Shown here: in pieces, positions 27,546 through 45,675 of the stretch
Position numbering within the stretch: position 1 is the stretch's first letter
Layout of the letters: each line of letters starts with the position of its first letter
DNA from: Bacteroidota bacterium
GTDB taxonomy: Bacteria > Bacteroidota > Ignavibacteria > UBA10030
Length of the DNA stretch: 64,000 bases
Reading direction: 5' to 3'
Assembly (NCBI GenBank): GCA_026416125.1
Contig: JAOAFT010000003.1
Coordinates: 82,022 to 146,021 of the forward strand
Program-made: the position numbers and the translations under genes
Notes under the pieces: generated by a model
Database searches by the model: none
Told to the model about the DNA's origin: nothing
What the model saw: only the letters and a program-made list of their open reading frames with translations

Positions 27546-27590
27546 ACAGTTGTGTGAGAGGTACGTGGTACGTGTTTATGGGGATGATTC

Positions 27591-29134: not shown

Positions 29135-29163
29135 TTGACAAACACAGAAAGTGGTTTTATATT
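29135..29163 (+). promoter_or_regulatory. Consensus-like sigma70 promoter (TTGACA, 17 nt spacer, TATATT) upstream of the pectin locus
   Basis: ttgaca at 29135-29140, a 17-nt spacer, then tatatt at 29158-29163, about 95 nt upstream of the GH28 ATG at 29258. Confidence 0.4.
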
Positions 29164-29257
29164 GCCAAGTGTTTGCGCGCTGGTGTAAAGGCTATAGCAG
29201 AAGTCATGCGCGGTGGCTTCTGGTGTTGTAATGATAACATATGTGTGTGAGGTTGTG

Positions 29258-30655
29258 ATGGGATATATCATTTCTAAGGTCAAGCTACTCTTGCTTTTAC
29301 TTACTATTGTCAGTTGGACAGTAAGTTCACAAGTTGATTGGAGTACAAAAGAGGAAATACTACGACGGATCATCCCACCTACCTTCCCCTCACGTACGTT
29401 TGATGTAACACAGTACGGTGCTGTGGGTAATGGGAAAAAGGATTGTTCAAAAGCGTTTGCGAAAGCAATTGACGCATGTTCAAAAGCAGGTGGAGGAACT
29501 GTGTTAGTACCAGCTGGAAAATATCTAACTGGTCCGATTGTACTTAAAAGTAATGTGAACTTGCACGTTGCGAAAGATGCGGAGATTCTCTTTTTTACCG
29601 ACCCTGATAAGTATTTGCCGGTTGTTTTCAGTCGGTGGGAGGGGGTTGAATGTATGAATTATTCGCCGTTGATTTACGCAATGGAACAGGAGAACATTGC
29701 AATTACGGGAGAAGGGGTATTGAATGGACAGGCGTCGTTCGAAAATTGGTGGTCGTGGAAAGGGCCGTGGAAGTATGTAAAAGAAGTAAAAGGTCCCACC
29801 CAACGAGAAGCACGCGCGAAACTGTTCCAAATGGCTGAAGATGGTGTTCCTGTAGAGAAACGGATATTTGGTAAAGGATCCTATCTTCGACCAAATTTTT
29901 TCATGCCTTACAAGTGCAAAAACGTTCTTGTTGAAGGTGTAACATTTAAAGATTCTCCTATGTGGTTCCTCAACCCGGTTCTATGCACGAATGTTTCGTT
30001 CATCAATGTAAAAACTATTGGATTAGGTCCTAATAACGATGGTATCGATCCTGAGTCATGTAAAGATGTTCTCATTCGAGGATGCTACTTCGATAATGGG
30101 GATGATTGTATTGCAATCAAATCTGGTCGAAATGCCGATGGGCGACGGATCAATGTTCCTTGTGAGAATATTATAGTTGAAAATTGTATAATGAAAAATG
30201 GTCATGGAGGAGTTTCCATCGGTAGTGAACTCTCTGGTGGTGTACGGAATGTGTTCATTGAGAATAACCTCATGGATAGTCCAAATCTTGATCGAGCGCT
30301 CCGGATTAAAACGAATGCGATGCGCGGTGGAGTTGTGGAGAATGTTTTCATGCGAAACTGTAAAGTTGGACAAGTAGCAGAGTCGGCAATAAAAATTGAT
30401 TTCTACTACGAAGAAGGTGAACGCGGTAATTTTACGCCAATTGTACGGAGTGTGTTTATTGATAGTATCGAGTGTCAAAAAGTCCCCTATGCTATCTGGA
30501 TTAAGGCGTTTAAACACTCACCTGCAACAAATGTTCGAATTACTAACTGTACCTTCAATGATGTTGCAAATGCAAATGTTATCGAGAATGTTAAAAATTT
30601 CGATCTAATAAATGTCGTTGTTAATAATCGACATACAAGTGAAAAAAGTAAGTAA
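29258..30655 (+). CDS. Glycoside hydrolase family 28 (polygalacturonase / exo-polygalacturonase) with signal peptide
   Basis: ATG at 29258 begins signal peptide MGYIISKVKLLLLLLTIVSWTVSSQ (ORF track begins at GTG 29213). GH28 motifs NDGIDPESC, GDDCIAIKSG, GHGGVSIGSE, RIK. Confidence 0.85.
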   Translation: MGYIISKVKLLLLLLTIVSWTVSSQVDWSTKEEILRRIIPPTFPSRTFDVTQYGAVGNGKKDCSKAFAKAIDACSKAGGGTVLVPAGKYLTGPIVLKSNVNLHVAKDAEILFFTDPDKYLPVVFSRWEGVECMNYSPLIYAMEQENIAITGEGVLNGQASFENWWSWKGPWKYVKEVKGPTQREARAKLFQMAEDGVPVEKRIFGKGSYLRPNFFMPYKCKNVLVEGVTFKDSPMWFLNPVLCTNVSFINVKTIGLGPNNDGIDPESCKDVLIRGCYFDNGDDCIAIKSGRNADGRRINVPCENIIVENCIMKNGHGGVSIGSELSGGVRNVFIENNLMDSPNLDRALRIKTNAMRGGVVENVFMRNCKVGQVAESAIKIDFYYEEGERGNFTPIVRSVFIDSIECQKVPYAIWIKAFKHSPATNVRITNCTFNDVANANVIENVKNFDLINVVVNNRHTSEKSK

Positions 30656-30689
30656 TTATTAACGTGTTATAAGGAACGAAGGAGTACAA

Positions 30690-33593
30690 ATGGCAAAGCG
30701 AGCATTCATATCTCTAGTGATTGTTTGCGCACTTTTTTGTGTAGCGCACAATGTTCTATTTGCACAAACCGGCGGTAAACTTGCTGGCGTCGTAACTGAT
30801 GAACAAACCGGTGAACCACTTATTGGAGCAAACGTTGTTGTACGTGGTACAAGCCTTGGTGCATCAACAGACCTCGATGGGAACTACTTTGTTCTCAATA
30901 TTCCAGCTGGGAAGTACGAAGTACAGGTATCGATGGTTGGTTACGAACGAGTAATTGTACGTGATGTAATTATCAATTCGGGCCGTACAACAACTCTCAA
31001 TGTCCAGTTGAAACAAACTGCGATTGAACAAGAAGCTGTGGTGGTTGAAGCTGTACGCCCTGACGTTGAGAAAGAAAAAACGTCAACAAGTGCTGTCGTT
31101 CGACCTGAAGAAGTACAGTCCCTTGCAGGGGTACGTGATGTTGCCGATGTAATTGGGTTGGCTGCGGATGTGACAGATGGCCACTTCCGTGGAGGTCGTA
31201 CTAACGAGGAACTCTATGTTCTCCAAGGTATGGGGATTAACAATCCGCTCGATAATTCCTCGGCGTTTATGCCAATTGTGAGCGCCGTAGAGGAAATCGA
31301 AGTTATTACGAGTGGATTTGATGCACAGTACGGTAATGCGCAGTCCGGTGTTGTGAATATTACTATGAAAGAGGGAAAACCAGACAAATGGCGTTCTCGG
31401 TTTGAATCTCGTGTGAAGATGCCCGGGAATAAATACTGGGGACCAAGCCCTTTCGATGTAAAAGCGCAACCATACCTTTTGAAACTTTCTAATTCAAACT
31501 TTTGGCGATATGGGGATTTTAGCAATGGCTATCAGCCATTAATGAACTGGATGAATATGCTTTTCGCTGGGGATACTAATGTGATGGTACATGCAACGCG
31601 AGTTGTGTGGGACAAAATTACTTCACGCGACATTAATAAAGATTATTCAAGAAAACTCGATTATTCATTCGAAGGTGCAACCGGTGGGCCGATTGATAAC
31701 GGCGTAACAATGTTCATTGCATTTCGATCAAACGTTGAAAGCCCAATTTTACCAACTGAAGAACCGGATCAACAACGACAAGTAATGGGGAATATTGCGT
31801 TTGATCTCGGTTCAGGTGCTGCATTCAAAGTAAGTGGTGGTTATCAACAGCAATACGAAAATTATTTTGGTGGTGGAACTGCGTTCTATAATTACGTATG
31901 GGATCGAATTCTTGGTATTCAGTACAGGCTCCGTACAAACCATCAACTAGGTTTCCGATTTACGAAAGCGCTCAGTGCAAAATCGTTCTACGACATTAAA
32001 TTGAATTCATTGAGAACAGAAAACAGGCTTGGGTCCACACCGTGGTACGATGTTATTACAGATGCAGTAAGGAATATGGAGACTGGTACGGCAATTATAA
32101 CACGGACCGGAAACTTGCTCTACTATCAAAATATAACAGGTAAAACATTTTCCTACCTTGGCAATAACTATGGTAATTTCCAGAACGAGCGAACAATCAC
32201 TGTCTCGCTCGATGCATCGTATACCAATCAAATTACAACTTCACATTTACTTAATGCAGGTATCCAAGCGAATTACTACGTTCTTCGTGTTGATAATATT
32301 GGTAGTATTAACTCGAAGGGAAGCATTACACAAACAAAGTATACAGGATATCCGTGGGAAGCAGGAATCTACGTGCAAGATAAGATGGAATTTGAAGGGA
32401 TGATTGCAAAAGTTGGGTTGCGCTGGGATGTATGGAACTCTAACAATTGGTACTACGAAGACATGTTCAATCCATTCAATGTACGAGATGCTCAGGGAAA
32501 TGTGACAGACGTTCAAGACCCAGAACGTGCACCAAAGAAAAAAGCAAAGCCTGTTGGTCGATTGCAACCACGAATAGGTATTTCCTTCCCTGTTTCGATG
32601 ACCACTGTTTTTCACTTGAACTACGGTACCTTCCTGCAACGACCTCCATTCCAGTACATGATCGGAAGCAGGATGAACATGTTATCCACAACTACAACAC
32701 CAAATACGCTTGGGAATCCGCGACTTGAACCACAATCCACGAACTCATACGATGTTGGAGTTATGCAGGGATTGGGAGAAGGATTTACACTTGATGTGAG
32801 CGGCTGGTATAAGGATGTTAAACACCTTGTTGAACAAGTTATCTTCACAGATCAGATTCGTGGTGTTTCCTACAACTCATACTTTAATAGGGATTATGCG
32901 GATATTCGCGGGTTCAGAGTTGTGTTAACGAAACGCCGTGGTGTACTGACAGGTTCATTAAATTATCAATACAGTGTTGCAACTGGGAAGAGTTCGTCAC
33001 CGGTGAATGCACCATGGGGTATTAAACGGGACCTCCAGGGTAACGTATCGACAGATATTTCAAAAGTGCCGCTTCGTGATGTTTTGTTGAACTTCGATCG
33101 TACACACAATCTCATTCTTACTTTAGCGTATGCCACTGGTGAGAAGTGGGGGCCAAAATTCTTCGATGTTTACCCATTCTCGTCAATGGTGTTTTCGGTT
33201 CGTAGTTTTGCCCGCAGTGGACGTCCCTATACACCATCCGGACAGGCGACAGAAATTAACACACGTCGAACGCCGAATGAGTACGAAACAAACATACGCA
33301 TAACAAAAACACTGAAGAAGTTTTTAGGAATGCAAGCATCCATATATGCTGAAATCTTCAATGTCTTCAACAACAAGATTTACGACTACAACTATGTTTT
33401 CAATACAGCAAACAAAACTGATGCCAACCAGATTCTCGTTCACTACGAACGATATCCATTTGAAGATATGACAAATGGAATTTTGTACTACGATAACTAT
33501 GCTGAAGGTACTGGGTTTGCGTGCGATCACTCCTTTGTTTTATATGATAATAGTCCTCGCTCATTTTATGTTGGTATTTCGATAGAGTTTTAA
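30690..33593 (+). CDS. TonB-dependent outer-membrane receptor with N-terminal carboxypeptidase-regulatory-like domain
   Basis: Signal peptide, CarbopepD_reg-like domain (GKLAGVVTDEQTGEPLIGANVVV...GKYEVQVSMVGYE), plug region, long beta-barrel, and C-terminal aromatic residue (SIEF). Confidence 0.8.
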   Translation: MAKRAFISLVIVCALFCVAHNVLFAQTGGKLAGVVTDEQTGEPLIGANVVVRGTSLGASTDLDGNYFVLNIPAGKYEVQVSMVGYERVIVRDVIINSGRTTTLNVQLKQTAIEQEAVVVEAVRPDVEKEKTSTSAVVRPEEVQSLAGVRDVADVIGLAADVTDGHFRGGRTNEELYVLQGMGINNPLDNSSAFMPIVSAVEEIEVITSGFDAQYGNAQSGVVNITMKEGKPDKWRSRFESRVKMPGNKYWGPSPFDVKAQPYLLKLSNSNFWRYGDFSNGYQPLMNWMNMLFAGDTNVMVHATRVVWDKITSRDINKDYSRKLDYSFEGATGGPIDNGVTMFIAFRSNVESPILPTEEPDQQRQVMGNIAFDLGSGAAFKVSGGYQQQYENYFGGGTAFYNYVWDRILGIQYRLRTNHQLGFRFTKALSAKSFYDIKLNSLRTENRLGSTPWYDVITDAVRNMETGTAIITRTGNLLYYQNITGKTFSYLGNNYGNFQNERTITVSLDASYTNQITTSHLLNAGIQANYYVLRVDNIGSINSKGSITQTKYTGYPWEAGIYVQDKMEFEGMIAKVGLRWDVWNSNNWYYEDMFNPFNVRDAQGNVTDVQDPERAPKKKAKPVGRLQPRIGISFPVSMTTVFHLNYGTFLQRPPFQYMIGSRMNMLSTTTTPNTLGNPRLEPQSTNSYDVGVMQGLGEGFTLDVSGWYKDVKHLVEQVIFTDQIRGVSYNSYFNRDYADIRGFRVVLTKRRGVLTGSLNYQYSVATGKSSSPVNAPWGIKRDLQGNVSTDISKVPLRDVLLNFDRTHNLILTLAYATGEKWGPKFFDVYPFSSMVFSVRSFARSGRPYTPSGQATEINTRRTPNEYETNIRITKTLKKFLGMQASIYAEIFNVFNNKIYDYNYVFNTANKTDANQILVHYERYPFEDMTNGILYYDNYAEGTGFACDHSFVLYDNSPRSFYVGISIEF

Positions 33594-33626
33594 TGAAACG
33601 TTAAACCATTATTGTGGGATATAACT

Positions 33627-35993
33627 ATGAAAAGAATTAGTGTTTTATTCTTAAGTGTGCTAACTATAGTAAGCGTTCTCTATGCTCAACGGGATTACCG
33701 TGTTCATAGGCGGTCAATGCTCCATCAAACAATTTACAACACTGGTGAAATTGGCAGAGCTCTTGATGCAAATGCATCAACGACGAACGGTGTTCCAAAG
33801 TTACCAGAAGGAAGTTTCCCAGCAACATTAGCGTCGTGGGAATGGCCGCCGTTTGGGTATCAAATTCTCGATGGAATTGAGTATTGGGGCCATCACAATT
33901 CATTTGGTGCAGGGATTCTCTTTAGTGCAGATATTCCTACTACAACTGGTGTTGTAAATGTACGCCGTGCATGCGGTGCTGTTACCGATGGCGCTGGAAA
34001 TAGTACACAAGTTGCAGGGATTTATGTTGTACCAGGGTCGATTACTCGTACGGAGAATTATCCTGTTCTTGCTGATGGATCGCTCAACCCGAATTACAAT
34101 CCGAATGAGGCAGAAGAAATTATAACAACGACCTATCGCACAACTGATCCGATGAAACTTCAGATTACCCAAACAAGCCGGGCATGGAGTTACCCAGGAT
34201 ATGACTCCTTTATAATTATTGAATACGAAATTGTGAATGTTGATACAGTTGACTATACCAACGGTTTTGTGATGTTTGGTGAAGCGATTGCGCCTTCTGC
34301 GTTTGGAATGCAGCGGAAGTATGCATTGTGGAATGAATCATCAAACACAACACGTGCACAGGAGGTGTACGCTCGTTACAACTTTACTCGATATCTTTCA
34401 TACGTACACACACGGAATGGATTCCCAGATAAAGATTATTTCAACATGTGGTCTACTCCAGGCAATAGGGGTGGCTTGAATGCTCCACAGGCCGTTGGGT
34501 ACATGATTCTACGGTATGATACGAACAACATTCAAACAAAAGACATGTTTACTTATGCTCGAAGCGATAGTGCTGTTGTTTGGGACGAACAGGGAAGATT
34601 CAAGCAACCATGGATTACTCAGCAGATACCGAATAGAAATCAGGATTTAAGTGATTCGCGGCTAGGTGCACTCATGATGATATCAAACCGTCCATTTTCA
34701 GGCTTTGATTTTCGGAGCGGGAGAACTGACTCGACTAACTGGGCAAATTTCTACTACCCCTATGCATCTGTTAATCCGGCGAAGAATTTGGAACTTATGA
34801 AATACTGGCATGGTCGTATACGACCACGAGCAACAGGTACCGGAAATTATTCGCAAACAACATTGCACTATACAACATTTGGCCCCTATGTTTTTAAAAA
34901 GAATGTGCGGATGAAATTTGCTATTGCCCAGTTAGTGGGCTACGGTCCTGGTATCGCAACTGATACAGTTTACCGTGATGCAGGAGGTTTTGCGACTGAA
35001 ACTGGATATTCAACGGGTGGATTCAAACCAGTAGTTAGTTGGTATGATTCCATCTCCTATCCTGGTATTCATGCGACCTTTACTCACATGGGGAGCGCAT
35101 ATTTAAAAACACACCCATTACCATGGTATGTAACAGGGAAAATATCAAATCTTGATCCGGAACCTGTTATCTCCCTACGGCAAGTTGCGGATCGAGCTAT
35201 TCAAATGTATACAGGTCAACCATACAAAAATTACAACGAAGAACAATACAAACCGGAATATGCACCTGCATCAGGTGTTTACAAGTCAGCTTATATTCCG
35301 ATTCCAGCACCAGCTATTGATGTTTACAATGCAGCTGACATGAAAAATAAAATTGTATGGTCACCATCGGTTGAAGATTTTACGTCGCTATCCCAAATCA
35401 GAACAGCTATCGGTGAAGGTAGAGTACGTTCGGGTCTTAAACACTATCTTGTATTGAAAGCAGAAAAACCGTTAGGTCCTTGGAAAGTTCTCGATAGTGT
35501 AAAGGTACGAGACCCTCGATATTTCAATGCTGATATTCAATACCCAGGGTACTACGTTGTACGTGACACATCGAGTTTGTTGAACGAGAATTACTTCTAC
35601 TGTGTTGTGTCTGTTGATTCTACTGGGGGTCGAAGTGGTATGACGAATATTACCTATCACGCAACACAAAAAGGTGCTGTGTCAAAATTGTCGAAAGTGT
35701 ATGTTGCACCAAACCCACTTATACTGACGGCGAATTTTGGTGGATATACTACGCAGGGCGATATTTACGATAAAATTGGATTTTTTGGATTATCACCGAA
35801 GTGTGATATTCGAATCTTTTCCTATAGTGGTCAGTTAATTGCAACCATTCACCATCGGTCAGATACATACTCCACAGAATGGTTCCAAATATCGAGAAGT
35901 GAACAAAGAATTGCCTCGGGTGTTTACTTCTATGTTGTAGAAGATTTGGTCACAGGCGATCGTGTTCATGGTAAGTTTGTCATAATTCATTGA
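33627..35993 (+). CDS. Aromatic-rich hypothetical surface protein (about 790 aa) with T9SS type-A C-terminal sorting domain
   Basis: ATG at 33627 (MKRISVLFLSVLTIVSVLYAQ signal peptide). The C-terminal roughly 90 aa match the Por_Secre_tail pattern (VYVAPNPLIL...DIRIFSYSGQLIATI...GVYFYVVEDLVTGDRVHGKFVIIH). The body is very rich in W, Y and N and has no family I can assign. Confidence 0.6.
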   Translation: MKRISVLFLSVLTIVSVLYAQRDYRVHRRSMLHQTIYNTGEIGRALDANASTTNGVPKLPEGSFPATLASWEWPPFGYQILDGIEYWGHHNSFGAGILFSADIPTTTGVVNVRRACGAVTDGAGNSTQVAGIYVVPGSITRTENYPVLADGSLNPNYNPNEAEEIITTTYRTTDPMKLQITQTSRAWSYPGYDSFIIIEYEIVNVDTVDYTNGFVMFGEAIAPSAFGMQRKYALWNESSNTTRAQEVYARYNFTRYLSYVHTRNGFPDKDYFNMWSTPGNRGGLNAPQAVGYMILRYDTNNIQTKDMFTYARSDSAVVWDEQGRFKQPWITQQIPNRNQDLSDSRLGALMMISNRPFSGFDFRSGRTDSTNWANFYYPYASVNPAKNLELMKYWHGRIRPRATGTGNYSQTTLHYTTFGPYVFKKNVRMKFAIAQLVGYGPGIATDTVYRDAGGFATETGYSTGGFKPVVSWYDSISYPGIHATFTHMGSAYLKTHPLPWYVTGKISNLDPEPVISLRQVADRAIQMYTGQPYKNYNEEQYKPEYAPASGVYKSAYIPIPAPAIDVYNAADMKNKIVWSPSVEDFTSLSQIRTAIGEGRVRSGLKHYLVLKAEKPLGPWKVLDSVKVRDPRYFNADIQYPGYYVVRDTSSLLNENYFYCVVSVDSTGGRSGMTNITYHATQKGAVSKLSKVYVAPNPLILTANFGGYTTQGDIYDKIGFFGLSPKCDIRIFSYSGQLIATIHHRSDTYSTEWFQISRSEQRIASGVYFYVVEDLVTGDRVHGKFVIIH

Positions 35994-36011
35994 TGGAAGG
36001 ATGAAAGAGCA

Positions 36012-37046
36012 ATGAAGAGTAACAAAAAAATATTTTTCAGTGTTTTTGCGCTACTTCTCGTTATTTCGACGATAACAAGTGCGCAAAAAGTTGGTAGCAC
36101 ATCTATGCAATTTCTTAAAGTCATGCCAGTAGCCCGAGCAACAGCTATGGGGGATGCCTATGCTGTTTGGGCAAAAGGTGCTGAAGCAGTATTTTGGAAC
36201 CCTGCTGGCCTTCAATATACAAATGGTAATGAACTCACAATGACTTACGTACAATGGATTTTTGATACATACCAAGGAGCATTTGCATATGCACGATCAT
36301 TAGGTATGTGGGGTTCACTTGGTCTCCAATTGCAATATGTCGACTTTGGTACATTCGATGAAGCTGTGTGGGTTCCACCGTATAACCAAGATCTCAATAC
36401 ACCTGGCTTAACGGGACGTACGTTCCGTCCTTATAGTTATTTAGTTGGTATTAGCTATGCAAATGCTTTGACCGATAAGTTTACAACGGGACTAACAGTA
36501 AAATACGCTCACGAGTCACTCTATAATGATAAAGAAGTTGAAGTGTGGATCTACCACCCTGATACATCAAAGATAAAAGTGAAGACGTGGGCCAATGTGG
36601 TACTCTTCGATTATGGTATTCATTATAAAACTGGCTACCGAACGATTGAAATTGCAGCGTCGATCCAAAATTTTGGCCCTAATGTCAAGTATGGTAAAGA
36701 AGATCACCCTGCACCCCTCTCGTTCCGCATAGGTATTGCAGGCGATCTCATGGGGCCTGACGCATTGTTGTTCAAGAGTGAGAACAGTCGGTTAGGTATG
36801 GAGTTTGACATTTTCCACCCAAATGATTATACACAACAGTACCACATTGGTGCAGAGTATGAGTTTGCTCAACTCATAGCACTTCGTGCTGGATATAAAC
36901 TCAATTACGATGCCGATGGGTTTACTGCTGGACTTGGTATTAAACAAACGCTTGGCACTGTTCGGTTCGCATTCGATTACAGCTTTGGGATGTTAAATTA
37001 CCATCTTGGAAATGTTCACAGAATAAGTTTAGGAGTGGGATTCTAA
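36012..37046 (+). CDS. Outer-membrane beta-barrel protein, FadL/PorV/PorQ/SprF-superfamily-like
   Basis: Signal peptide. N-terminal motif ARATAMGDAYAVWAKGAEAVFWNPAGL (a FadL/PorV-type AxMGGAY...NPAxL signature). Alternating amphipathic strands and a C-terminal aromatic residue (SLGVGF). Confidence 0.55.
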   Translation: MKSNKKIFFSVFALLLVISTITSAQKVGSTSMQFLKVMPVARATAMGDAYAVWAKGAEAVFWNPAGLQYTNGNELTMTYVQWIFDTYQGAFAYARSLGMWGSLGLQLQYVDFGTFDEAVWVPPYNQDLNTPGLTGRTFRPYSYLVGISYANALTDKFTTGLTVKYAHESLYNDKEVEVWIYHPDTSKIKVKTWANVVLFDYGIHYKTGYRTIEIAASIQNFGPNVKYGKEDHPAPLSFRIGIAGDLMGPDALLFKSENSRLGMEFDIFHPNDYTQQYHIGAEYEFAQLIALRAGYKLNYDADGFTAGLGIKQTLGTVRFAFDYSFGMLNYHLGNVHRISLGVGF

Positions 37047-38605
37047 TGAAACAGCACATACTCAATTTTGGATTCTATATTCTCATTGCTACATTTGGAA
37101 TTGTTAGCAATGTGTACTCACAAGAGGGTACATCTCTCAAGATGCAAGGGTTGAATTATTATACAAACCAATCTACAATCTCACGGGCAATGGGTGGTGT
37201 GACAGTTGGATTAAAAAATGAACCAACGTTAATGTACCTTAACCCAGCAATGCTAACCTCAATATCTGGGGTTAAATTTTCTGTTGGTGGGTATTGGCAA
37301 AAAAATAGTAAGAATCAAAATCAACAATTTGGTACATTACAAGGACATGCTGGTGCTGTATTTCTATTCCAGGGCATAACATCACAAATTCCTGATCCAG
37401 ATTTCAGTTTGGTAACGAAACGCAGACTCACACAAGAGGATTCTATTCAACGGCCATTCGATAATTTAGGTCCATATTGGAGTAGAGAAAAGAATTTCAC
37501 TTTACCACTTCAGTTTTTTGCAGTTTCACCATTTAAAGTTGGTGACTATAAAGTTGTTGTTGGTATTGGTGCAGTAGAGTATGCCAATTTATATTGGTAT
37601 TACTGCAATAATAATGCGCTTTCTCCAAATGTACTTGATGTTGCAACCTATGGAACAATTCGTACACAAAACTTACCACGGAACGATACCATTGTCACAG
37701 CAACAAAACCCTACCCGGTATATTGGAACAAATACTATCAATATAGGAATGGATCAATTAATGGGTATGGTGGTGCCGTTGCAGTAGAACTATCACCAAG
37801 GTTTTCACTAGGCGTAAGTGGTATGTACCTTGATGGTGAAACAACGGATGAAGAAGGACAACAAGGACGTGGAAGAATGTTGTTCTTTTATAACTCAATA
37901 CGCCTTGATAAGTATGGAATGACAACTTATAAAACACGAGGTAAATCGACATACAGTGGCTTTGAATTTATCGTAAGTGGTACATACACATCGCCCTATA
38001 TTCAGGTAGGTTTCTCATTAAAACCACCGACGACGCTAGAACGTAAGTTTAACTACTCTTATTGGAAAGACTCAGTTGCAGCGACAAAAAGACTTGATTC
38101 CAAAGCCGATTCAATTCACATCATAACAACTTCATATCCAAGTGGAAATGATAAAATGGAATTACCACTCCGTGGATCATTAGGAATTGCGATTACTATT
38201 AAAGAAAATATTCTTGTTGCTTTTGAGTATGAAGTTAATCCGTACGCTTCTGCAACGTATATTGCCCCAAATGGAATATCCTCAAAGCCATGGTTGTCGT
38301 CCTCCACAATGAAGTTCGGTGCAGAATGGAACGTTGTTGAGTGGTTAAAACTTCGTGGTGGCATGCGACAAGTGGGTGAAGTGTTTCAACCTGCGACTAA
38401 TCCACTCCGTGGTGAAAACGTTAAGTACCCGGTATACTCACTTGGGTGTGGTGTAACTGCATTTGGCGCAACACTGAACATAACGTATGAATATTCTGAT
38501 CGACGGTATACCGATACATGGTCGAATGCTGCGAGTATTAATCATCAGTATGTCCATACAATTGTTGCTGACATGACATACCAACTGCCATTTCTTCTAT
38601 GGTAG
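37046..38605 (+). CDS. Second FadL/PorV-like outer-membrane beta-barrel protein (519 aa)
   Basis: Start overlaps the previous stop. Signal peptide. N-terminal SRAMGGVTVGLKNEPTLMYLNPAML is paralogous to the preceding gene's motif. Ends with the aromatic YQLPFLLW. Confidence 0.5.
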   Translation: MKQHILNFGFYILIATFGIVSNVYSQEGTSLKMQGLNYYTNQSTISRAMGGVTVGLKNEPTLMYLNPAMLTSISGVKFSVGGYWQKNSKNQNQQFGTLQGHAGAVFLFQGITSQIPDPDFSLVTKRRLTQEDSIQRPFDNLGPYWSREKNFTLPLQFFAVSPFKVGDYKVVVGIGAVEYANLYWYYCNNNALSPNVLDVATYGTIRTQNLPRNDTIVTATKPYPVYWNKYYQYRNGSINGYGGAVAVELSPRFSLGVSGMYLDGETTDEEGQQGRGRMLFFYNSIRLDKYGMTTYKTRGKSTYSGFEFIVSGTYTSPYIQVGFSLKPPTTLERKFNYSYWKDSVAATKRLDSKADSIHIITTSYPSGNDKMELPLRGSLGIAITIKENILVAFEYEVNPYASATYIAPNGISSKPWLSSSTMKFGAEWNVVEWLKLRGGMRQVGEVFQPATNPLRGENVKYPVYSLGCGVTAFGATLNITYEYSDRRYTDTWSNAASINHQYVHTIVADMTYQLPFLLW

Positions 38606-38654
38606 TATAATGACATTGTTTGTTAGGAATGTATAACAAGAAGGAAGTGAATCT

Positions 38655-39302
38655 ATGAGAAAACGAAAGCTAGTTTTGGTGGTATTACTAGTACCAATCA
38701 TAACATATTCGCAGGGACTGACGTTAACTTTTGGTGGTGGACTTTCAGTCCCGTTGAGTGAGAATAACATGTCGAAGTACTTTAAAACAACGACTAAATT
38801 TATGTTTGCTGATTGTTGGAACTATGGTTTCAATCTCACAGCAGGTATTGATTACAAATTTAATGAACAATTTACCGCGTTTGCTACTGTAGACTATAGT
38901 TCTTTTTCAGTGAATAAGAGTATGGTATTAAAGCGACTTCGCCTTCCTGCAGGCACATATGTACAAGATGGCGAATTTACCACAGTCGCTGGGAAAGTAG
39001 GTATGCGGTACTACCTACCGGTTTACTTTATTGATAGAAACGTGAAACCATATATCTCAGCTAGTGCTGGCATAATGAATCTGGCAAGTGATAAATTGTA
39101 TGTACTCATCGATGCATATACGAACTTTGTTGCAGCATTCAAAAACAGCAATGTGCTCTGTGGCTCTTTGGGAGTCGGTGTTGATGTTATTGGCGGTGAA
39201 TCTTCTGCGTTATTTATTCAACTCGGTCTTGATGTAGCAAATACGAAAGGTGGGTCTCTCTACTATGTTCCTTTGATTGTAGGTTTTCGAGGAGCATTCT
39301 AA
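38655..39302 (+). CDS. Small outer-membrane beta-barrel protein (OmpA-like/OmpW-like, 215 aa)
   Basis: Signal peptide, 8-10 amphipathic beta-strands, and C-terminal ...GFRGAF. Confidence 0.5.
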   Translation: MRKRKLVLVVLLVPIITYSQGLTLTFGGGLSVPLSENNMSKYFKTTTKFMFADCWNYGFNLTAGIDYKFNEQFTAFATVDYSSFSVNKSMVLKRLRLPAGTYVQDGEFTTVAGKVGMRYYLPVYFIDRNVKPYISASAGIMNLASDKLYVLIDAYTNFVAAFKNSNVLCGSLGVGVDVIGGESSALFIQLGLDVANTKGGSLYYVPLIVGFRGAF

Positions 39303-39336
39303 ATGCTTTATGTTGTGTGAGGCTGTAAAATGTGAT

Positions 39337-39365
39337 ACGCACCACCCTGTGGTGCGTTTTTTTTG
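39337..39365 (+). terminator. Rho-independent terminator
   Basis: acgcaccac at 39337-39345 and gtggtgcgt at 39349-39357 form a 9-bp stem with a 3-nt loop, followed by a T9 run. Confidence 0.75.
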
Positions 39366-39385
39366 AGCATGGAGGAAAACCATTA

Positions 39386-40930
39386 ATGATAGACAATGGT
39401 AACAAAATTCCATCGATATATCGAATGTTATGTGTAGTGTTTTTCGCAAGTATGTTCTTAGCTAGTGACGTTCAAAAAACAAAGTTTAGAATATTTCTTA
39501 TGGGTGATTCAACAATGGCAGATAAACCACTTGTTGACAACCCAGAGCATGGGTGGGGACAGATGTTTCCCATGTTCTTTACCAGAGATGTTGAAATATT
39601 TAACCATGCACGTAATGGTCGTAGCACAAAGAGTTTCTTGGCTGAAGGTCGTTGGAAAACAATTTACGAGCAATTGCAAAGTGGTGATTATGTAATTATT
39701 CAATTTGGGCACAATGATGCAAAAAAAGATGATTCAACACGGTTCGCCGCTCCACGGCCTGAGTACAAAGAAAATCTTCGCCGATTTATTCGTGAAGCGC
39801 GTGAAAAGAATGCAATTCCAATTCTCCTTACACCAGTTACACGACGAGATTTTAATGAGCATGGTGAATTTGTAGCAACACACTTCGAGTATCCTGATGC
39901 AATGAAGGAAGTTGCTCGAGAAGAGAATGTGTTTCTCATTGATGTTTTTGAACTCTCAAAATCAGTTGTAGGTCCAATGGGGCCTGAAGGCTCGAAGAAG
40001 TTGTACTTAGCTGGTGTCAAAGATGGTATGTATCGTGTGTGGAATAAAAAGAAAGATAATACCCATTTCTCGCGTTTAGGTGCTTTTATAATAGCAAAGC
40101 TTGTTGCGGAAGGTATTCGTGAATTGAAACTTCCACTTGCAACCGAGCTTGTTGATCTACCACAAAGCTCTCTGCTATTGCCAGCCTACGGTAAAGTTGT
40201 TGCTCTCGATTATTATTTCAATAATGAGTGGCGTACTTCGAAGGGAAAAGATTCTGTTGAACGTTTTCACTATACTTGGGAAGACACAACGAACAGCGGG
40301 TTTTCACAACTCGGGAGAGTGCTCGACTGGCTAGGCGCAGATCTCGATACTATCCAATCACCTCCAACAATATCAACGCTCCAACATTGCAGTATTTACA
40401 TCATTGTTGACCCAGATACTCCAAAAGAAACAACAAGTCCACATTACATTACAGAAGAAGATGTTACTGTACTTAAACAATGGGTTGAAAATGGAGGTGT
40501 GTTATTATTGATGGCAAACGATAAAGGGAATTGTGAATTTAACCACTTTAACAAACTTGCAGAACAGTTTGGTATTCGTTTTACAGAAGACAATCACTTT
40601 ATGGTTAAAAATAACGTCTATGAAATGGGCAGAATAGAGGAATTCCCAGACCATCCTGCTTTTAATGGGGTGAAGCATATTTTTATGAAGGAAGTAACTT
40701 CAATTACGACAACTCCACCTGCACAGCCACTCCTTACTGCTCGTGGAGTTACGATTATGGCGTACGCTCGCGTTGGAAAAGGTTTAGTTGTAGCTGTCGG
40801 TGATCCATGGTTATATAATGAATACTTTGATAACAGACGTTTACCTAAGGGATATGAAAATTGGGATGCGGGGAAACAATTCTTTACATGGCTACTGAGT
40901 CAATCACGGCAGATATACTTTGAGAATTAG
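39386..40930 (+). CDS. SGNH/GDSL hydrolase (CE12 rhamnogalacturonan acetylesterase-like) fused to a C-terminal roughly 280-aa GATase1-like/DUF4350-like domain
   Basis: GGAGGA at 39371-39376 and ATG at 39386 (the ORF-track start at 39332 lies inside the terminator). SGNH block I FLMGDSTMAD, the GHND block and a DAKKDD region. The C-terminal half (GGVLLLMANDKGN..., VAVGDPW) is unrelated to the esterase domain. Confidence 0.65.
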   Translation: MIDNGNKIPSIYRMLCVVFFASMFLASDVQKTKFRIFLMGDSTMADKPLVDNPEHGWGQMFPMFFTRDVEIFNHARNGRSTKSFLAEGRWKTIYEQLQSGDYVIIQFGHNDAKKDDSTRFAAPRPEYKENLRRFIREAREKNAIPILLTPVTRRDFNEHGEFVATHFEYPDAMKEVAREENVFLIDVFELSKSVVGPMGPEGSKKLYLAGVKDGMYRVWNKKKDNTHFSRLGAFIIAKLVAEGIRELKLPLATELVDLPQSSLLLPAYGKVVALDYYFNNEWRTSKGKDSVERFHYTWEDTTNSGFSQLGRVLDWLGADLDTIQSPPTISTLQHCSIYIIVDPDTPKETTSPHYITEEDVTVLKQWVENGGVLLLMANDKGNCEFNHFNKLAEQFGIRFTEDNHFMVKNNVYEMGRIEEFPDHPAFNGVKHIFMKEVTSITTTPPAQPLLTARGVTIMAYARVGKGLVVAVGDPWLYNEYFDNRRLPKGYENWDAGKQFFTWLLSQSRQIYFEN

Positions 40931-40972
40931 TACAGTTCGAATTTTAGATTGTTAATGATGAGGATGCATAAA

Positions 40973-42625
40973 ATGAAACAAAAGGTTGTTGATGGATTTT
41001 TTATTGTTGCGTTGTTGAGTTCAATGGCTTTTTCACAGCTTCACAGAATATACGAACCAATTCCACATCGATACTATGAGGGTGTTCACTTTGCTATGCC
41101 ACAAGTTCCGCTCCCAACAATTCCAAATGTAAGTGTGTCAATAGTTGAATTTGGTGCGAAAGGAGATGGAGTAACACTTAACACGAAAGCTTTTGCCGAT
41201 GCTATTGCTGCATGTGAACAAAAAGGGGGGGGGAGAATTGTAGTGCCACCAGGTATTTGGGTTACAGGACCTATTGTTCTCAAAAGTAACATTGAGTTGC
41301 ATGTTGTACGTGGTGCAATTGTGTTGTTTTCCTCCAACATTGATGATTACCCAATGATCCAACGTCCGAAGAGTACAGCGTTTACAAGATCACCTCTTCT
41401 GTATGCTGTTGGCGCGCACAATATTGCAATTACAGGAGAAGGGATGTTTAATGGAAATGGCCAGTACTGGCGCCCTGTCAAAAAGGAAAAACTTCCAAGT
41501 GGTCATTGGAAACGCCTTATTGAGTCTGGCGGAGCTGTTACGTCGGATGGAAAATTATGGTACCCATCGAAGGAAGCACTGGAGGGTGAGAAGTATTTGG
41601 ATGAGCTTCGTAAATCAAAGAAAAGACTTGATTCCACTGATTATGCTGCAACGCGGGAATTCTTGCGCCCCGATTTGTTAGCGTTTGTTAATTGTTCAAC
41701 CATCCTTATTGATGGTCCATCTTTTGTTAACTCGCCGAAATTTACTGTCCATCCAATTCAATGCGTGGATGTGGTCATTCGTAATATTGAAATTTTCAAT
41801 GAGTGGTGGTTCCAAAATGCAGATGGTATTGATTTGTCATCTTGCAGAAACGTTGTTGTCTACAATAATGTTATTAATACAGGTGATGATGGAATTTGTG
41901 TAAAACCTGGTACACCAAACCCAAAGTTGAAAGATTTACCTGCGTGTGAAAATTATATTATCGCTGATAATATTGTGTATCACGCACATGGTGGTTTTGT
42001 GATTGGAAGTGAATCGTATGGAGGAGCAAGAAATATAAGTGTAAAAAACCTTACCTGCGTATGGACGGATGTAGGGCTTCGGTTTAAGTCGGCTCGTGAC
42101 CGTGGAGGTCTTGTTGAACATATTGTGATCGATAGTGTATGGATGAAAGATATTGCAGGCGAGGCGATCCTTTTTGATATGTCCTACGGAGATGCGCCTA
42201 CGGATGTTCCACAAGAACGAATTAGAATCCCTCAATTCAGAAATTTCACGATTCGAAATGTTGTTTGTGATGGAGCACGATACGGTGTGAGAATTGAAGG
42301 GTTACGTGAACAACCGATTCACACTATTTCAATTGAAAATGCTACTTTACTTTCTGATCGATCTGTCCTTATGAATTATGCTGAAGGAATACAATTGAAT
42401 CGAGTTGCTCTACGTTCGAAATATGAGCCATACTGTACGATTAAGAATAGTCAACAAATTGTTTTCGATAATGTTAATCTTCTAGATTCCGTAAGCATTT
42501 TCTTACGTGTTGAAGGTAGTACAACAAAAAACATTAGAGTACACAAATCAGTGCTTGAGCGTAGTCAAAAACCATTTGAGACATCGAATGGTGCAAGTGA
42601 AAGCTCAGTAGTATTCATACACTGA
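40973..42625 (+). CDS. Glycoside hydrolase family 28 (polygalacturonase/rhamnogalacturonase-like)
   Basis: AGGA RBS and ATG at 40973 (MKQKVVDGFFIVALLSSMAFSQ). GH28 motifs NADGIDLSSC, GDDGICVKPG, HGGFVIGSE, RFK. Contains a G9 homopolymer at 41225-41233. Confidence 0.8.
   Translation: MKQKVVDGFFIVALLSSMAFSQLHRIYEPIPHRYYEGVHFAMPQVPLPTIPNVSVSIVEFGAKGDGVTLNTKAFADAIAACEQKGGGRIVVPPGIWVTGPIVLKSNIELHVVRGAIVLFSSNIDDYPMIQRPKSTAFTRSPLLYAVGAHNIAITGEGMFNGNGQYWRPVKKEKLPSGHWKRLIESGGAVTSDGKLWYPSKEALEGEKYLDELRKSKKRLDSTDYAATREFLRPDLLAFVNCSTILIDGPSFVNSPKFTVHPIQCVDVVIRNIEIFNEWWFQNADGIDLSSCRNVVVYNNVINTGDDGICVKPGTPNPKLKDLPACENYIIADNIVYHAHGGFVIGSESYGGARNISVKNLTCVWTDVGLRFKSARDRGGLVEHIVIDSVWMKDIAGEAILFDMSYGDAPTDVPQERIRIPQFRNFTIRNVVCDGARYGVRIEGLREQPIHTISIENATLLSDRSVLMNYAEGIQLNRVALRSKYEPYCTIKNSQQIVFDNVNLLDSVSIFLRVEGSTTKNIRVHKSVLERSQKPFETSNGASESSVVFIH
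41225..41233 (+). repeat. Homopolymeric G9 tract inside the GH28 coding sequence
   Basis: Read directly: caaaagggggggggagaatt, encoding KGGGR. Confidence 0.9.
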
Positions 42626-42690
42626 GGAACCAGGAGTAGCACTCGAAGAAAATATTCATACTTGGGGTGGAGAAAGGAAAAAGATTTTTG

Positions 42691-43986
42691 ATGGTTGGTA
42701 GAAGTATTTTATTCTCGTTAGTTTTTATAAGTATTGGTGTTTTGAATAGTTTTGATATATTCGCGCAAAGACGCTTCGAGTACATTGTTGCAAAGGATGG
42801 GAGTGGTCAATTTCGCTCGATTCAGGAGGCGATTGATGCAGTTCCATTTAATCGACAGGAGCGAGCCGTTATTATTGTAAAGAAAGGTGTTTACGAAGAA
42901 AAACTTTTTATAGCTAAGAGTAACATTGCTATTGTTGGAGAAGATCGCGATAGTACGCGTATTGTGTATCCACAGCTTCGTAGTACATGGCGTGCTGTAA
43001 ATAACGATAATGACTATGGAAGTGCAGTTGTAAACATTGATTCCTCTGCAGTCGATATTACGATTGCTAACTTGACGATTTATAATAATTATGGTTCGCT
43101 CACAGGGATCCATGATCATCAATTTGCAATTTATGGTACAGGAACTCGTATTATTCTTCTTAACTGCAATGTCGTTGCAGATGGTGGCGATACCGTAAGT
43201 TTGTGGAACCGGACGAATGGAATGTACTATCATGCGAACTGTTACTTCGAAGGTTGGGTTGATTATGTATGTCCTCGTGGGTGGTGCTATATTACAGATT
43301 CTCGGTTCTATGGCCATAATCTAAGTGCTTCAATTTGGCACGATGGTAGTGCTAATAAAAAACAAAAATTTGTTATTCGATACTCATACTTCGATGGTGT
43401 ACCAGGATTTCCCCTTGGACGAAACCATCGCGATGGACAAATCTATCTCCTTGATTGTATTTTTTCAAGAAACATGGCTGATATACCGATTTACTACCCA
43501 CCGACAACAACTAGTGGGCCATGGAAGTGGGGAGCGCGGCATTACTATTACAATTGCCATCGTGAAGGTGGAGACTACGATTGGTTTGCTGATAATTTAC
43601 ATACCGCCGAAGGTGCACCAAAACCAGATGAAGTCACTGCACATTGGACATTCGATTACCTGTGGGATCCTGAAGCATCGCTTCCTGCAATTCTCCCATT
43701 TGTGTCAATGCCAGTGCCCCGCAATGGCGCCTATATAGCATATCAGTCTCGTCTTTCATTGCGATGGCTACCATCTCGAACAGCACAAGCATTTCGTCTA
43801 TTTTTTGGGAAAGTGAAGAAGTATACATTCATGAAAGATCCACAATTGAGTATGATTGCAGAAGTAAAAGAAGCCCAGTTTGAAATATCTTCTCTTGAAC
43901 CAGCAACAACGTACTTTTGGCAAGTCGAAGAAATAACACCATATGGAATTCTCCGTGGACCTGTGTGGCACTTCACAGTACGGTAA
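42691..43986 (+). CDS. Pectinesterase (CE8 pectin methylesterase) with C-terminal FN3/Ig-like domain
   Basis: CE8-type motifs (GVYEEKL, DHQFAIYGTG in the QAVAL position, GGDTVSLWN in the QDTL position, GWVDYVCPRG in the DFIFG position, LGRNHRDGQ in the LGRPW position). ATG at 42691 is preferred over GTG 42667. Confidence 0.75.
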   Translation: MVGRSILFSLVFISIGVLNSFDIFAQRRFEYIVAKDGSGQFRSIQEAIDAVPFNRQERAVIIVKKGVYEEKLFIAKSNIAIVGEDRDSTRIVYPQLRSTWRAVNNDNDYGSAVVNIDSSAVDITIANLTIYNNYGSLTGIHDHQFAIYGTGTRIILLNCNVVADGGDTVSLWNRTNGMYYHANCYFEGWVDYVCPRGWCYITDSRFYGHNLSASIWHDGSANKKQKFVIRYSYFDGVPGFPLGRNHRDGQIYLLDCIFSRNMADIPIYYPPTTTSGPWKWGARHYYYNCHREGGDYDWFADNLHTAEGAPKPDEVTAHWTFDYLWDPEASLPAILPFVSMPVPRNGAYIAYQSRLSLRWLPSRTAQAFRLFFGKVKKYTFMKDPQLSMIAEVKEAQFEISSLEPATTYFWQVEEITPYGILRGPVWHFTVR

Positions 43987-44039
43987 GTAACCTCCATGTA
44001 TATTCTTTTTGCGTGTGTAATAATTGATGGGAGTAATCT

Positions 44040-45665
44040 ATGAAATGGGAAATTGTTATTAGTATTTTTTTGATTTTGGGTTCATCTATCATACAGGCAC
44101 AGCAACTTGCCTTTCCTTCTGCCGAAGGCGCTGGGCGTTTTGCTACTGGTGGACGTGGTGGTGCTGTGTACGAAGTAACGAATCTGAATAATAGTGGACC
44201 TGGTTCGATTGTCGATGCTGTAAGTCAACCAAATCGTACGATTGTTTTTCGTGTCTCTGGTACAATTGAGTTGGGAAATGTGATTTTAAAACCAAAATCG
44301 AATATAACGATTGCGGGACAAACCGCACCAGGGGATGGGATTTGTATTAAAGGGCGTATCCAAATTGATGCATCGAATGTTATTATTCGATACATACGTG
44401 TTCGTGTAGATGCTGGTGCTGCAAATTCATCGGGCGATGCAATTGATATCTCAAGTGGTTCGAACATTATAATTGATCACGTCAGTGCATCGTATGCCCG
44501 CGATGAAGGAATCTCTTGCCAAGAGAGAACAAACAATGTGACAGTTCAGTGGTGTATGATTACCGAGGCACTAACGTTCGAAAGTCATAGCTACGGTTCG
44601 TTGATTCGCGGTGATTATGGTGATTTGAAGACGTACCACCACAATCTCTATGCACACAACAACAATCGACTCCCACGTCCGGGTAACTATACCAATTACC
44701 CTACCGACACACTTGGTCTGTTTTTCGATTTCAGGAATAATGTAGTGTACAATTGGAAAGGTTCATATCCTGGCTACAATGCTGATACTGGTTCCATTAG
44801 CAACTACAATTTTGTAGGAAATGTGTATGTTCCTGGACTTGAGTCGAGTATTACAGGGATTATTTTTAAAGAGGATGCATATCGGTCAACAGGGTATTTC
44901 GCTGACAACATGTACAACGGCTCAATACCACCCAATCAGTGGTCGATGGTTCAATTCGGAAGCAAGTTTACTGCTGAGAGAATTCAGGCATATAAAGCAC
45001 GTTCTCGAGAAATTCTAATGCCTCCTGTTCGTACGACGAGCCCTCAGATTGCATACCAGGAAGTACTTGCTTCTGCTGGTGCAAGCTTTCCAAAGCGGGA
45101 TCCAATTGATACCCGAATTGTATACGATGTACAAAATAAAACAGGTCGTTCAATCGCTACGACTGCAGAACAACCAGAAGGTGGATGGCCAGTGTTACAG
45201 AGTCTTCCAGCTCCGCAAGACGATGATCACGACGGAATGCCAAATGAGTGGGAACGTGCATTTGGGCTTAATCCGAATGATCCAAGTGATCGTAATGTAT
45301 ATTCACCAGCAGGGTACACAATGCTTGAAGAGTACCTCAATAGTCTCGTTGGTGAAAGCACTATCACCGATGTCGCGTTCACTCAAACTCCAAATATACC
45401 GCTGGAAGTACGTCTGTTCCAGAATTTTCCCAATCCATTCAATCCCGTAACGGTAATTCAATTTCAACTTCAAATGGCCTCCGTTGTCTCGGTAAAGGTC
45501 TATTCAGTCCAAGGTAAAGAAATACAAACACTTACTCATGGGGTATATCCCACGGGGTTGCATTCAGTTGTGTTCGATGGATCCAATCTACCTAGCGGTG
45601 TTTATGTATATCGGTTGCACACTGCTACCCAAACACTTTCGAAAACAATGGTTTTATTGAAGTAA
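44040..45665 (+). CDS. Pectate lyase (PL1-like) with T9SS type-A C-terminal sorting domain
   Basis: Signal peptide. Pectate-lyase N-terminal block AFPSAEGAGRFATGGRGGAVYEVTNL...ITIAGQTAPGDGICIKG...IIRYIRVR. The C-terminus NFPNPFNPVTVIQF...GVYVYRL...VLLK matches the Por_Secre_tail. Confidence 0.75.
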   Translation: MKWEIVISIFLILGSSIIQAQQLAFPSAEGAGRFATGGRGGAVYEVTNLNNSGPGSIVDAVSQPNRTIVFRVSGTIELGNVILKPKSNITIAGQTAPGDGICIKGRIQIDASNVIIRYIRVRVDAGAANSSGDAIDISSGSNIIIDHVSASYARDEGISCQERTNNVTVQWCMITEALTFESHSYGSLIRGDYGDLKTYHHNLYAHNNNRLPRPGNYTNYPTDTLGLFFDFRNNVVYNWKGSYPGYNADTGSISNYNFVGNVYVPGLESSITGIIFKEDAYRSTGYFADNMYNGSIPPNQWSMVQFGSKFTAERIQAYKARSREILMPPVRTTSPQIAYQEVLASAGASFPKRDPIDTRIVYDVQNKTGRSIATTAEQPEGGWPVLQSLPAPQDDDHDGMPNEWERAFGLNPNDPSDRNVYSPAGYTMLEEYLNSLVGESTITDVAFTQTPNIPLEVRLFQNFPNPFNPVTVIQFQLQMASVVSVKVYSVQGKEIQTLTHGVYPTGLHSVVFDGSNLPSGVYVYRLHTATQTLSKTMVLLK

Positions 45666-45675
45666 GGAGTTAAAT

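Follow-up and report, generated by a model that had tools for sequence, protein, structure and literature searches.

The window analysed here is a 64,000-nt stretch of a Bacteroidota contig (JAOAFT010000003.1, positions 82,022 to 146,021 of the forward strand). The gene in question runs on the forward strand of this window from the ATG at 33627 to the stop codon at 35993, and it encodes a 788-aa protein, hereafter called X. We suggest that X is the outside subunit of a TonB-dependent transporter, exported by the type IX secretion system (abbreviated T9SS) and anchored at the cell surface by a cognate PorV-like barrel, a reading to which we assign about an even chance. As judged from sequence comparison, the partnership between X and the transporter is well supported. 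The pairing draws its strength from three points, because the gene order is conserved in 71 of 72 loci, is held in relatives at 28-29% identity, and the body of X co-diverges with the transporter. An initial annotation of this gene had placed X as the SusD-position partner of the transporter. The conserved adjacency agrees with the position, but X is not a relative of SusD and would be a functional analogue at most.

Conserved gene order around X

The gene for X comes immediately after that for the 967-aa transporter (30690..33593, forward strand), as had been annotated; the gap is 33 nt. The gene for a 344-aa, 14-strand barrel of the PorV/PorQ family (36012..37046, forward strand) starts 18 nt past X, and the start of the next gene, for a 519-aa barrel of the FadL family (37046..38605, forward strand), overlaps the PorV-like stop by 1 nt. 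A further gap of 49 nt separates it from the gene for a 215-aa protein.

The X family, which is conserved along the whole protein, has at least 523 matches. Among the 120 matches listed, the identity was 43-74%, and all were named as hypothetical or T9SS-domain proteins. The protein identical to X at NCBI is MCX7983811.1, a "T9SS C-terminal target domain-containing protein" from a Bacteroidetes/Bacteroidota metagenome-assembled genome (MAG). When a profile of the body of X alone was compared with 1.84 billion representative proteins, 119 clusters (50% identity) were matched at E <= 1e-3 and 36 at E <= 1e-30. When one genome per species was scanned, at least 230 X-encoding loci emerged, and the best 80, which come from MAGs of Ignavibacteria/Ignavibacteriota, KSB1 and Calditrichia and often number several per genome, were used for the gene-order counts. 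The transporter gene stood directly upstream of X in 71 of the 72 loci with enough flank, and the PorV-like gene directly downstream in 66 of 68; a FadL/BamG-like barrel came next after the PorV-like one in all cases (62/62). The median gaps inside the related cassettes were 34-40 nt. No description of this cassette was found in the full-text literature searched, the Melioribacter and Caldithrix genome papers included; most subscription journals lay outside the coverage.

The 967-aa protein is, by its sequence features, a genuine TonB-dependent transporter, with a carboxypeptidase-regulatory-like N-terminal domain, a plug, a barrel and a C-terminal Phe. A TonB-box-like EAVVVEA, recognised by eye, lies near aa 115, ahead of the plug. 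A profile built from 20 orthologues matched PDB structures of the PhuR barrel, of the FepA/YncD plug and of the RagA N-terminal domain. PF00593 was matched by 9 of the 20 orthologues (best 2.4e-26), and the NCBIfam plug-region model gave 47 bits on the window protein. No Pfam plug or barrel match was found for the window transporter itself, which NCBI labels "carboxypeptidase-like regulatory domain-containing protein"; its TonB-dependent nature was revealed only through profile searches and orthologues. The SusC/RagA model TIGR04056 reached 64.5 bits against a cutoff of 368, through the N-terminal domain alone, which leaves the transporter outside that subfamily.

The 344-aa barrel scored 207 bits on NF033709 (cutoff 90), and its family profile matched F. 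johnsoniae PorV (6h3i_F) at 5e-17. On the equivalog models, it reached 74.8 bits against 250 for PorV and 90.4 against 220 for PorQ, both short of housekeeping orthology. In genomes with several cassettes, each cassette had its own PorV-like gene. At the sequence level, the barrel in the window is a dedicated paralogue. The closest solved relative of the 519-aa barrel was 9hiv_F (2.9e-8), which we take to be BamG; the paper on the structure of the Bacteroidota BAM complex refers to 9HIV. TbuX and FadL were matched as well, and the BamG model gave 54.9 bits against a cutoff of 250.

A GH28 homologue is located upstream of the transporter gene in about half of the related loci, and GH28 is the usual neighbour of X members at 42-64% identity. 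X paralogues at 35-40% identity (L059-L079) are found in alginate loci, for example L065 (14997-21616) and L072 (112-20515). The alginate loci carry PL6 with a T9SS domain, alginate lyases, PL17-like genes, a 251-aa SDR, an MFS transporter and a GntR regulator. Pectin-type and alginate-type cassettes can share one MAG (L006/L065; L001/L066).

The triad of transporter, X and PorV-like barrel was also observed in remote relatives at 28-29% identity, in which the fourth gene and the cargo genes differ from those of the main family. P0198 (769 aa, from a TARA metagenome) is 28% identical to X in the N-terminal core, the FN3 domain and the C-terminal domain (CTD), and it is flanked by a homologous transporter (3e-44) and a PorV-like barrel (6e-41). 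P0169 (613 aa) aligned with the X family over its full length (hhalign, 2e-38); its flanking genes encode a CarboxypepD_reg+Plug transporter and a PorV-like barrel (hhalign, 2.6e-42), and its locus contains GntR, a sugar ABC transporter and GH38. The presence of the triad in these relatives indicates that the transporter–X–PorV-like unit is old and has been reused across glycan loci. In the locus of P0198 (L081), the gene for a GWxTD-domain protein (PF20094, 6351-7721) takes the place of that for the FadL/BamG-like barrel and is followed by DUF6785 and DegT-family genes, and the locus has no carbohydrate-active enzymes (CAZymes).

Within the family, it was the transporter whose pairwise distances correlated most closely with those of the X body (r 0.93, partial 0.44). 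Since the sequence pairs depend on one another, the body–transporter signal is weak evidence and only suggestive. Between pectin-type and alginate-type X, the identity was 56% in the N-terminal motif, 53% in the CTD, 46% in the FN3 domain and 42% in the body. The most variable stretch among 36 sequences was aa 341-420.

Domains and C-terminal region of X

The open reading frame given by the initial annotation was confirmed, with a product of 788 aa in place of 790. X homologues align from the Met at 33627, and an in-frame TTG also lies upstream at 33612. The N-terminus, MKRISVLFLSVLTIVSVLYA/QRD (the slash marks the predicted cut), resembles, by eye, a signal peptidase I signal in its n/h/c shape, which agrees with the signal peptide annotated earlier; it covers aa 1-20 (33627..33686, forward strand) with the predicted site LYA/Q. 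No Cys is present in the first 115 residues, so there is no lipobox and the signal is not that of a lipoprotein. In all five exported proteins encoded in 30690-39302, the chain that follows the predicted signal peptidase I cut begins with Gln (LFA/QTGG, LYA/QRD, TSA/QKVG, VYS/QEGT and TYS/QGLT). Under the 'Q-rule' of Bacteroidetes, exported proteins carry an N-terminal pyroglutamate, and the predicted cleavage sites of the unit proteins are supported because the Gln pattern fits this rule.

The AlphaFold2 (AF2) model of X built with a 50-sequence alignment had a predicted local distance difference test score (pLDDT) of 76 and a predicted template modelling score (pTM) of 0.82; over the AF2 models, the values were 75-76 and 0.82-0.83. 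The conserved N-terminal motif (aa 22-76, 33690..33854, forward strand; xHxR(S/G)xLxQTxxNTGExGR ... EWP), which AF2 modelled with low confidence, is followed by the body (aa 77-555, 33855..35291, forward strand), a large beta-sandwich with helical insertions in the model. An FN3-like beta-sandwich domain (aa 560-685, 35304..35681, forward strand), matched by Foldseek to tandem FN3 structures at probability 1.0, leads to a T9SS CTD of the PorZ/PorU-like kind (aa 690-788 and the stop codon, 35694..35993, forward strand), defined by hidden Markov models (HMMs), AF2 and Foldseek.

The initial annotation could not assign X to any family, and the same holds for the present search. The body had no Pfam or NCBIfam match in any of the 50 family members and no PDB sequence match by single-sequence or profile search, and the body-only profile found no characterised relative among the 1.84 billion representative proteins; a sequence-based family assignment of the body was given up, and weak matches of a sandwich segment of roughly 80 residues, located past subtilase domains, did not help with it. 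The best Foldseek matches of the body in the PDB had a template modelling (TM) score of 0.2-0.28 and fell on the N-terminal beta-sandwich domains of GH94, GH116, GH63 and GH65 enzymes. A carbohydrate-binding module (CBM) or beta-propeller fold had been put forward for the structural check; AF2 and Foldseek gave instead the large beta-sandwich with weak PDB matches, and X showed neither a fold nor a sequence family that could be recognised as CBM or propeller. Likewise, none of the SusD models PF07980, PF12741, PF12771 and PF14322 matched the window X or the 50 homologues at E <= 0.05, and the AF2 models are predominantly beta, not the all-alpha fold based on tetratricopeptide repeats (TPR). 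As modelled, the body has a fold without a close solved relative.

A segment of about 60-130 residues of the X sandwich weakly matched two proteins, P0219 (1772 aa) and P0237 (653 aa), downstream of their subtilase (Peptidase_S8) domains. These matches, in otherwise unrelated T9SS proteins, fall within positions ~48-180 of the body profile and hint that part of the X body may be a more widely used beta-sandwich module. A fusion protein, P0127 (1262 aa, L091 2802-6590), begins with about 550 residues that contain ASH/HYDIN-type Ig-like domains, and a complete X body follows them; a 958-aa gene is located directly upstream of it, and the contig stops before any downstream gene.

Since aa 22-76 is the part best conserved between the substrate classes and yet has low AF2 confidence, we considered that it might be a tether threading into a partner barrel, as the N-terminus of BamH does in BamG. 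This idea was rejected. The segment is kept in two copies without a cassette and is internal (at ~aa 550) in P0127, which makes it part of the domain and not a tether.

The initial annotation had also described X as extraordinarily rich in W, Y and N, and had taken this as a sign of carbohydrate-binding surfaces. All strings quoted in that annotation are present in X (WEWPPFGYQ, YWGHHNSFG, WANFYYPYASVNP, WYVTGK, VAPNP, GVYFYVV and KFVIIH). However, the description is overstated. X contains 1.9% W, 7.5% Y and 5.3% N. Its W+Y content of 9.4% is about 2 standard deviations (sd) above the window mean (5.3%, sd 2.1), but the adjacent outer-membrane proteins (9.0% and 9.4%) and the CE8 esterase (9.3%) contain as much, and its N content is within the ordinary range of the window proteins compared. 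The argument from an aromatic surface to glycan binding is therefore weak, with a composition that is ordinary beside the neighbouring barrels, and it was dropped.

At the C-terminus, the AF2 strands of the CTD lie at aa 692-786, and X has both a terminal beta-sandwich of about 80-100 aa and an N-terminal Sec signal. On TIGR04183, the window X scored 14.8 bits, below the type A cutoff of 23, and no PF18962 match was found in it; CHU_C (Pfam) matched weakly at aa 721-772 (E 0.0065). The NCBIfam PorZ model NF052228 gave 29 bits against a cutoff of 260, with aa 675-787 aligned to its last 100 positions only. Furthermore, PorZ (5m11) was the only PDB sequence match of the X family profile, and Foldseek matched the CTD to the same structure at 26% identity across 131 columns. 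The other X proteins from cassettes behaved similarly. TIGR04183 gave 20.7 bits for the L065 protein, 16.6 bits for P0169 and no match for P0198, and the PorZ C-terminus scores were 29 (window), 25 (L065), 22 (P0169) and 12 bits (P0198); P0169 also matched the PorU C-terminus. The ordinary cargo proteins of the same loci (PL1, PL9, PL6 and a BNR protein) scored 28-45 bits on TIGR04183 and had no PorZ match, and the PL1 and PL9 pectate lyases of the window, each with an ordinary T9SS type A domain, reached 36 and 41 bits. Across the family, the PorZ C-terminus was matched by 49 of the 50 members, TIGR04183 by 43 at E <= 0.05 and PF18962 by 12. By its sequence, the X CTD is related to the type A domain but divergent. 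The Por_Secre_tail-like C-terminus of the initial annotation can thus be kept as a T9SS CTD, but not as a standard one, being below the TIGR04183 cutoff, unlike PL1 and PL9.

Two homologues do carry a clear type A domain. One, in L073 (9998-12220, 40% identity), matched PF18962 at 2e-8 and has unrelated neighbours and no cassette. The other, P0133 (1033 aa, L088 6001-9102), matched PF18962 at 1.8e-9, has ~250 extra residues, and is flanked by hydrogenase-like and transglutaminase-like genes, with neither a transporter nor a PorV-like gene next to it; a GH28 gene ~5 kb away carries a T9SS domain. The prediction that a type A domain goes with the absence of a cassette held in both of these cases, which were the ones looked at. 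A third exception to the cassette, L014, is frameshifted and near a contig end. Taken together, these observations are suggestive of a link between the kind of CTD and the possession of a PorV-like neighbour.

Proposed role and alternative explanations

We propose that several outer-membrane proteins form a unit for the uptake of polyuronate fragments, here those of pectin, and that X is its extracellular subunit. X would be exported by Sec and cut by signal peptidase I at LYA/Q, and would then cross the outer membrane through T9SS by means of its CTD. The CTD would remain uncleaved, without transfer to lipopolysaccharide, and would dock on the PorV/PorQ-family barrel encoded downstream, as PorQ holds PorZ and PorV holds PorU. 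The CTDs of PorZ and PorU are retained, bound by PorQ and PorV respectively. A review that gives the PorZ–PorQ case proposes that cognate PorV-like barrels shield such CTDs from cleavage (PMC10202324). The body of X would be placed beside or above the extracellular face of the transporter, where it may capture oligogalacturonides from the T9SS-secreted PL1 and PL9 lyases and pass them to the transporter, a SusD-like job. The 519-aa FadL/BamG-like barrel probably packs on the transporter as a membrane scaffold, like BamG with BamA. BamG, itself a barrel of the FadL type, binds to a large barrel and serves as an anchor for surface proteins (PMC12611786, PMC12578637). The covalent T9SS attachment of X initially annotated is judged less likely than non-covalent docking on the downstream barrel, whose gene that annotation had not linked to X, because the cassette copies have a PorZ/PorU-like CTD and the non-cassette copies a type A domain.

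Several observations weigh against this proposal. The CTD evidence consists of sub-threshold HMM scores and only two stand-alone copies. In a mirror-tree comparison, the CTD distances showed nothing beyond shared ancestry with those of the PorV-like barrel (partial r 0.13). Moreover, 90 residues of X, many of them charged, are invariant among 36 pectin-type and alginate-type sequences, which is high conservation for a ligand-binding lid and would suit an enzyme. SusD-like proteins usually diverge far more. Finally, two homologues stand alone as ordinary T9SS cargo, and the X body therefore has a function independent of the transporter.

The conservation would fit a surface enzyme from a new family, such as a polysaccharide lyase or some other enzyme acting on uronates, that cuts polymer beside the transporter in the manner of SusG and is not a binding lid; we regard such an enzyme as unlikely. 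His, Arg, Glu, Asp and Tyr are frequent among the invariant residues, the loci of the main family serve only two polymers, both degraded by beta-elimination, and the stand-alone copies have ordinary secretion domains, one of them ~5 kb from the GH28 gene with a T9SS domain. The weak fold matches of X are all to carbohydrate-active enzymes; however, the matched parts are non-catalytic N-terminal beta-sandwich domains, with TM scores of just 0.2-0.28. The motifs AEEII, SRAWS, FIIxEY and IRDVADRA are also kept in the relative from the GH38/ABC-transporter locus and in one without CAZyme neighbours, and this retention outside uronate loci points to fold-determining residues, against a uronate-specific active site. 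In addition, secreted lyases are already encoded in the loci, and enzymes in polysaccharide utilisation loci (PULs) do not typically adjoin a transporter and a PorV-like barrel so strictly.

That the body can be carried as ordinary cargo is also evident from the stand-alone copies. On the initial annotation's version, X would be such cargo, its CTD cut by PorU and the protein placed on anionic lipopolysaccharide or released as a free glycan binder. The matches at relaxed thresholds to TIGR04183 (43/50) and to PF18962 (12/50) are in keeping with it, but the tested cassette members fell below the type A cutoff, whereas every other tested cargo of the same loci passed it. A dedicated PorV/PorQ paralogue adjoining X in 66 of 68 loci and in the remote relatives would be hard to explain, because the housekeeping PorV shuttle and attachment complex would then suffice, and we consider this version quite improbable. 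A structural organiser, a canopy or docking platform that gathers secreted lyases and esterases at the transporter without a ligand site of its own, comparable to a utilisome or the BamH dome, has in our estimation only a slight chance of being correct. The FN3 spacer with the large, strongly conserved body, the paired BamG-like barrel (BamG in BAM is a platform for the extracellular dome) and the conservation of the motifs whatever the substrate class would all suit a platform. Nevertheless, the stand-alone copies lack barrels, aa 341-420 varies between the substrate classes as expected of a specificity region, and the secreted enzymes give no sign of interaction modules. A PorZ-like housekeeping role in secretion was ruled out, with several X paralogues per genome and X embedded in glycan loci.

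If X is anchored as we propose, the cassette might define a new class of importer, in which a T9SS-exported partner of new fold is held through an uncleaved PorZ-type CTD on its own PorV/PorQ-like barrel, often with a BamG-like barrel too; we advance this extension tentatively and hold it rather less probable than its converse. The extent of the class, which would span deep-branching relatives of Bacteroides (Ignavibacteria, KSB1, Calditrichia and others) and pectin, alginate and mannosides as substrates, is offered with the same reserve.

To our knowledge, glycan uptake in Bacteroidota is understood almost wholly through SusCD pairs, and every described lid, whether SusD or not, is a lipoprotein. 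The proposed arrangement, if true, would bring type IX secretion together with TonB-dependent glycan uptake in a single dedicated, modular outer-membrane machine diversified over substrates, and would add a protein fold lacking a close solved relative. CTD retention on a cognate PorV-like barrel would become a general anchoring principle, beyond PorZ and PorU, and a function could be given to many proteins of environmental genomes that lack an explanation, both PorV/PorQ paralogues and those named for a "T9SS C-terminal target domain". The cassette would also serve as a marker for polysaccharide loci in lineages where SusD-based detection fails; annotation-based PUL finders will miss such loci, the transporter being too divergent for Pfam. 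The organisms that carry it are common in sediments, soils and bioreactors, and the arrangement would bear on the turnover of pectin and alginate carbon there.

The pectin locus and comparison with known systems

The pectin locus of the window (29213 to 48078, forward strand) comprises, in order, the genes for a GH28 protein, the transporter, X, the PorV-like barrel, the 519-aa barrel, the 215-aa protein, an esterase, a second GH28, CE8, PL1 and PL9. The first gene (29213..30655, forward strand) encodes a GH28 polygalacturonase or alpha-galacturonidase-like protein (PF00295, 7e-32; NF049892, 360 bits, below the equivalog cutoff). Upstream of it lies the best sigma-70-like promoter match of the locus (29135..29163, forward strand; TTGACA, 17 nt, TATATT; 11/12). 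The total count of sigma-70-like sites was not above the shuffled expectation, and this site is a consensus match only. The 215-aa protein (38655..39302, forward strand) appears to be a small beta-barrel-like outer-membrane protein with a C-terminal Phe (weak OMP_b-brl match), and it had no tblastn match across the 80 related loci. Past it lies the best intrinsic-terminator-like site of the locus (39337..39365, forward strand; a 9-bp stem with 6 GC pairs, T8), which is likewise a consensus match only. The genes from GH28 through the 215-aa gene form a candidate operon bracketed by these promoter-like and terminator-like sites.

The remainder of the locus (39332..48078, forward strand) encodes a GDSL esterase with DUF4350, the second GH28, a CE8 pectinesterase and the PL1 and PL9 pectate lyases. 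The mechanical GTG start of the GDSL esterase frame (39332) overlaps the terminator-like hairpin at 39337-39357 and its T8; the true start is probably further downstream. The locus sits among housekeeping genes, with FtsA, FtsZ, enolase, a phosphoglucosamine-mutase-like gene and RlmD upstream (21918-29015) and an alpha-glucan phosphorylase with DUF3417 (minus strand), GH2 and SMC downstream (48358-57304). The GC skew is positive throughout the window. Rfam and tRNA scans of the 64-kb window found none.

Compared with SusD/RagB, X is similar in standing directly after a large TonB-dependent transporter with a carboxypeptidase-regulatory-like N-terminal domain, in lying in a glycan-degradation locus, in its predicted extracellular position and in having substrate-class-specific paralogues. 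However, X fails SusD membership on sequence, lipidation and fold. It has no SusD Pfam match in 50 members, a signal peptidase I signal where SusD has a lipobox, and a beta-sandwich where SusD has the all-alpha TPR fold. Moreover, X has a T9SS CTD and is accompanied by one or two FadL-type barrels, and its transporter is far below the SusC/RagA cutoff. Non-SusD lids for non-SusC transporters exist, among them BtuG, XusB and DUF4876 (bioRxiv 10.1101/2023.03.17.533168; Price, Deutschbauer, Arkin). These Bacteroides lids share with X their unrelated families, a conserved adjacency to the transporter and a proposed position on its outer face, but all of them are lipoproteins of the lipoprotein pathway, and none has T9SS export or a dedicated PorV-like barrel.

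The PorZ–PorQ and PorU–PorV pairs resemble the system in another respect, in that the X CTD is closer to those of PorZ and PorU than to ordinary cargo and a PorV/PorQ-family barrel is the proposed non-covalent anchor. However, the X body is unrelated to the PorZ beta-propellers (29 against 260 bits, C-terminus only), and X has many paralogues per genome in nutrient loci and is not a single housekeeping component. The SprB-type adhesins of Flavobacterium, with their type B CTD and PorP/SprF, likewise pair a T9SS substrate with an adjoining dedicated PorV-like barrel, which in the SprB case is thought to be needed for secretion or anchoring of the adhesin. The barrel next to X belongs to PorV/PorQ and not to PorP/SprF, the CTD is of another kind, and the link is to a TonB-dependent transporter and not to gliding. 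As for BamG–BamH, the 519-aa barrel is of the FadL family with BamG as its probable closest solved relative, and BamG packs on a large barrel and is a platform for extracellular proteins. In contrast to BamG, the 519-aa barrel scores 55 against 250 bits, lies in a nutrient locus, would have the transporter and not BamA as its partner, and is absent from the remote triads. What we propose as new is the combination of a TonB-dependent transporter, X and T9SS-type anchoring, with a new route of export and anchoring and a new fold.

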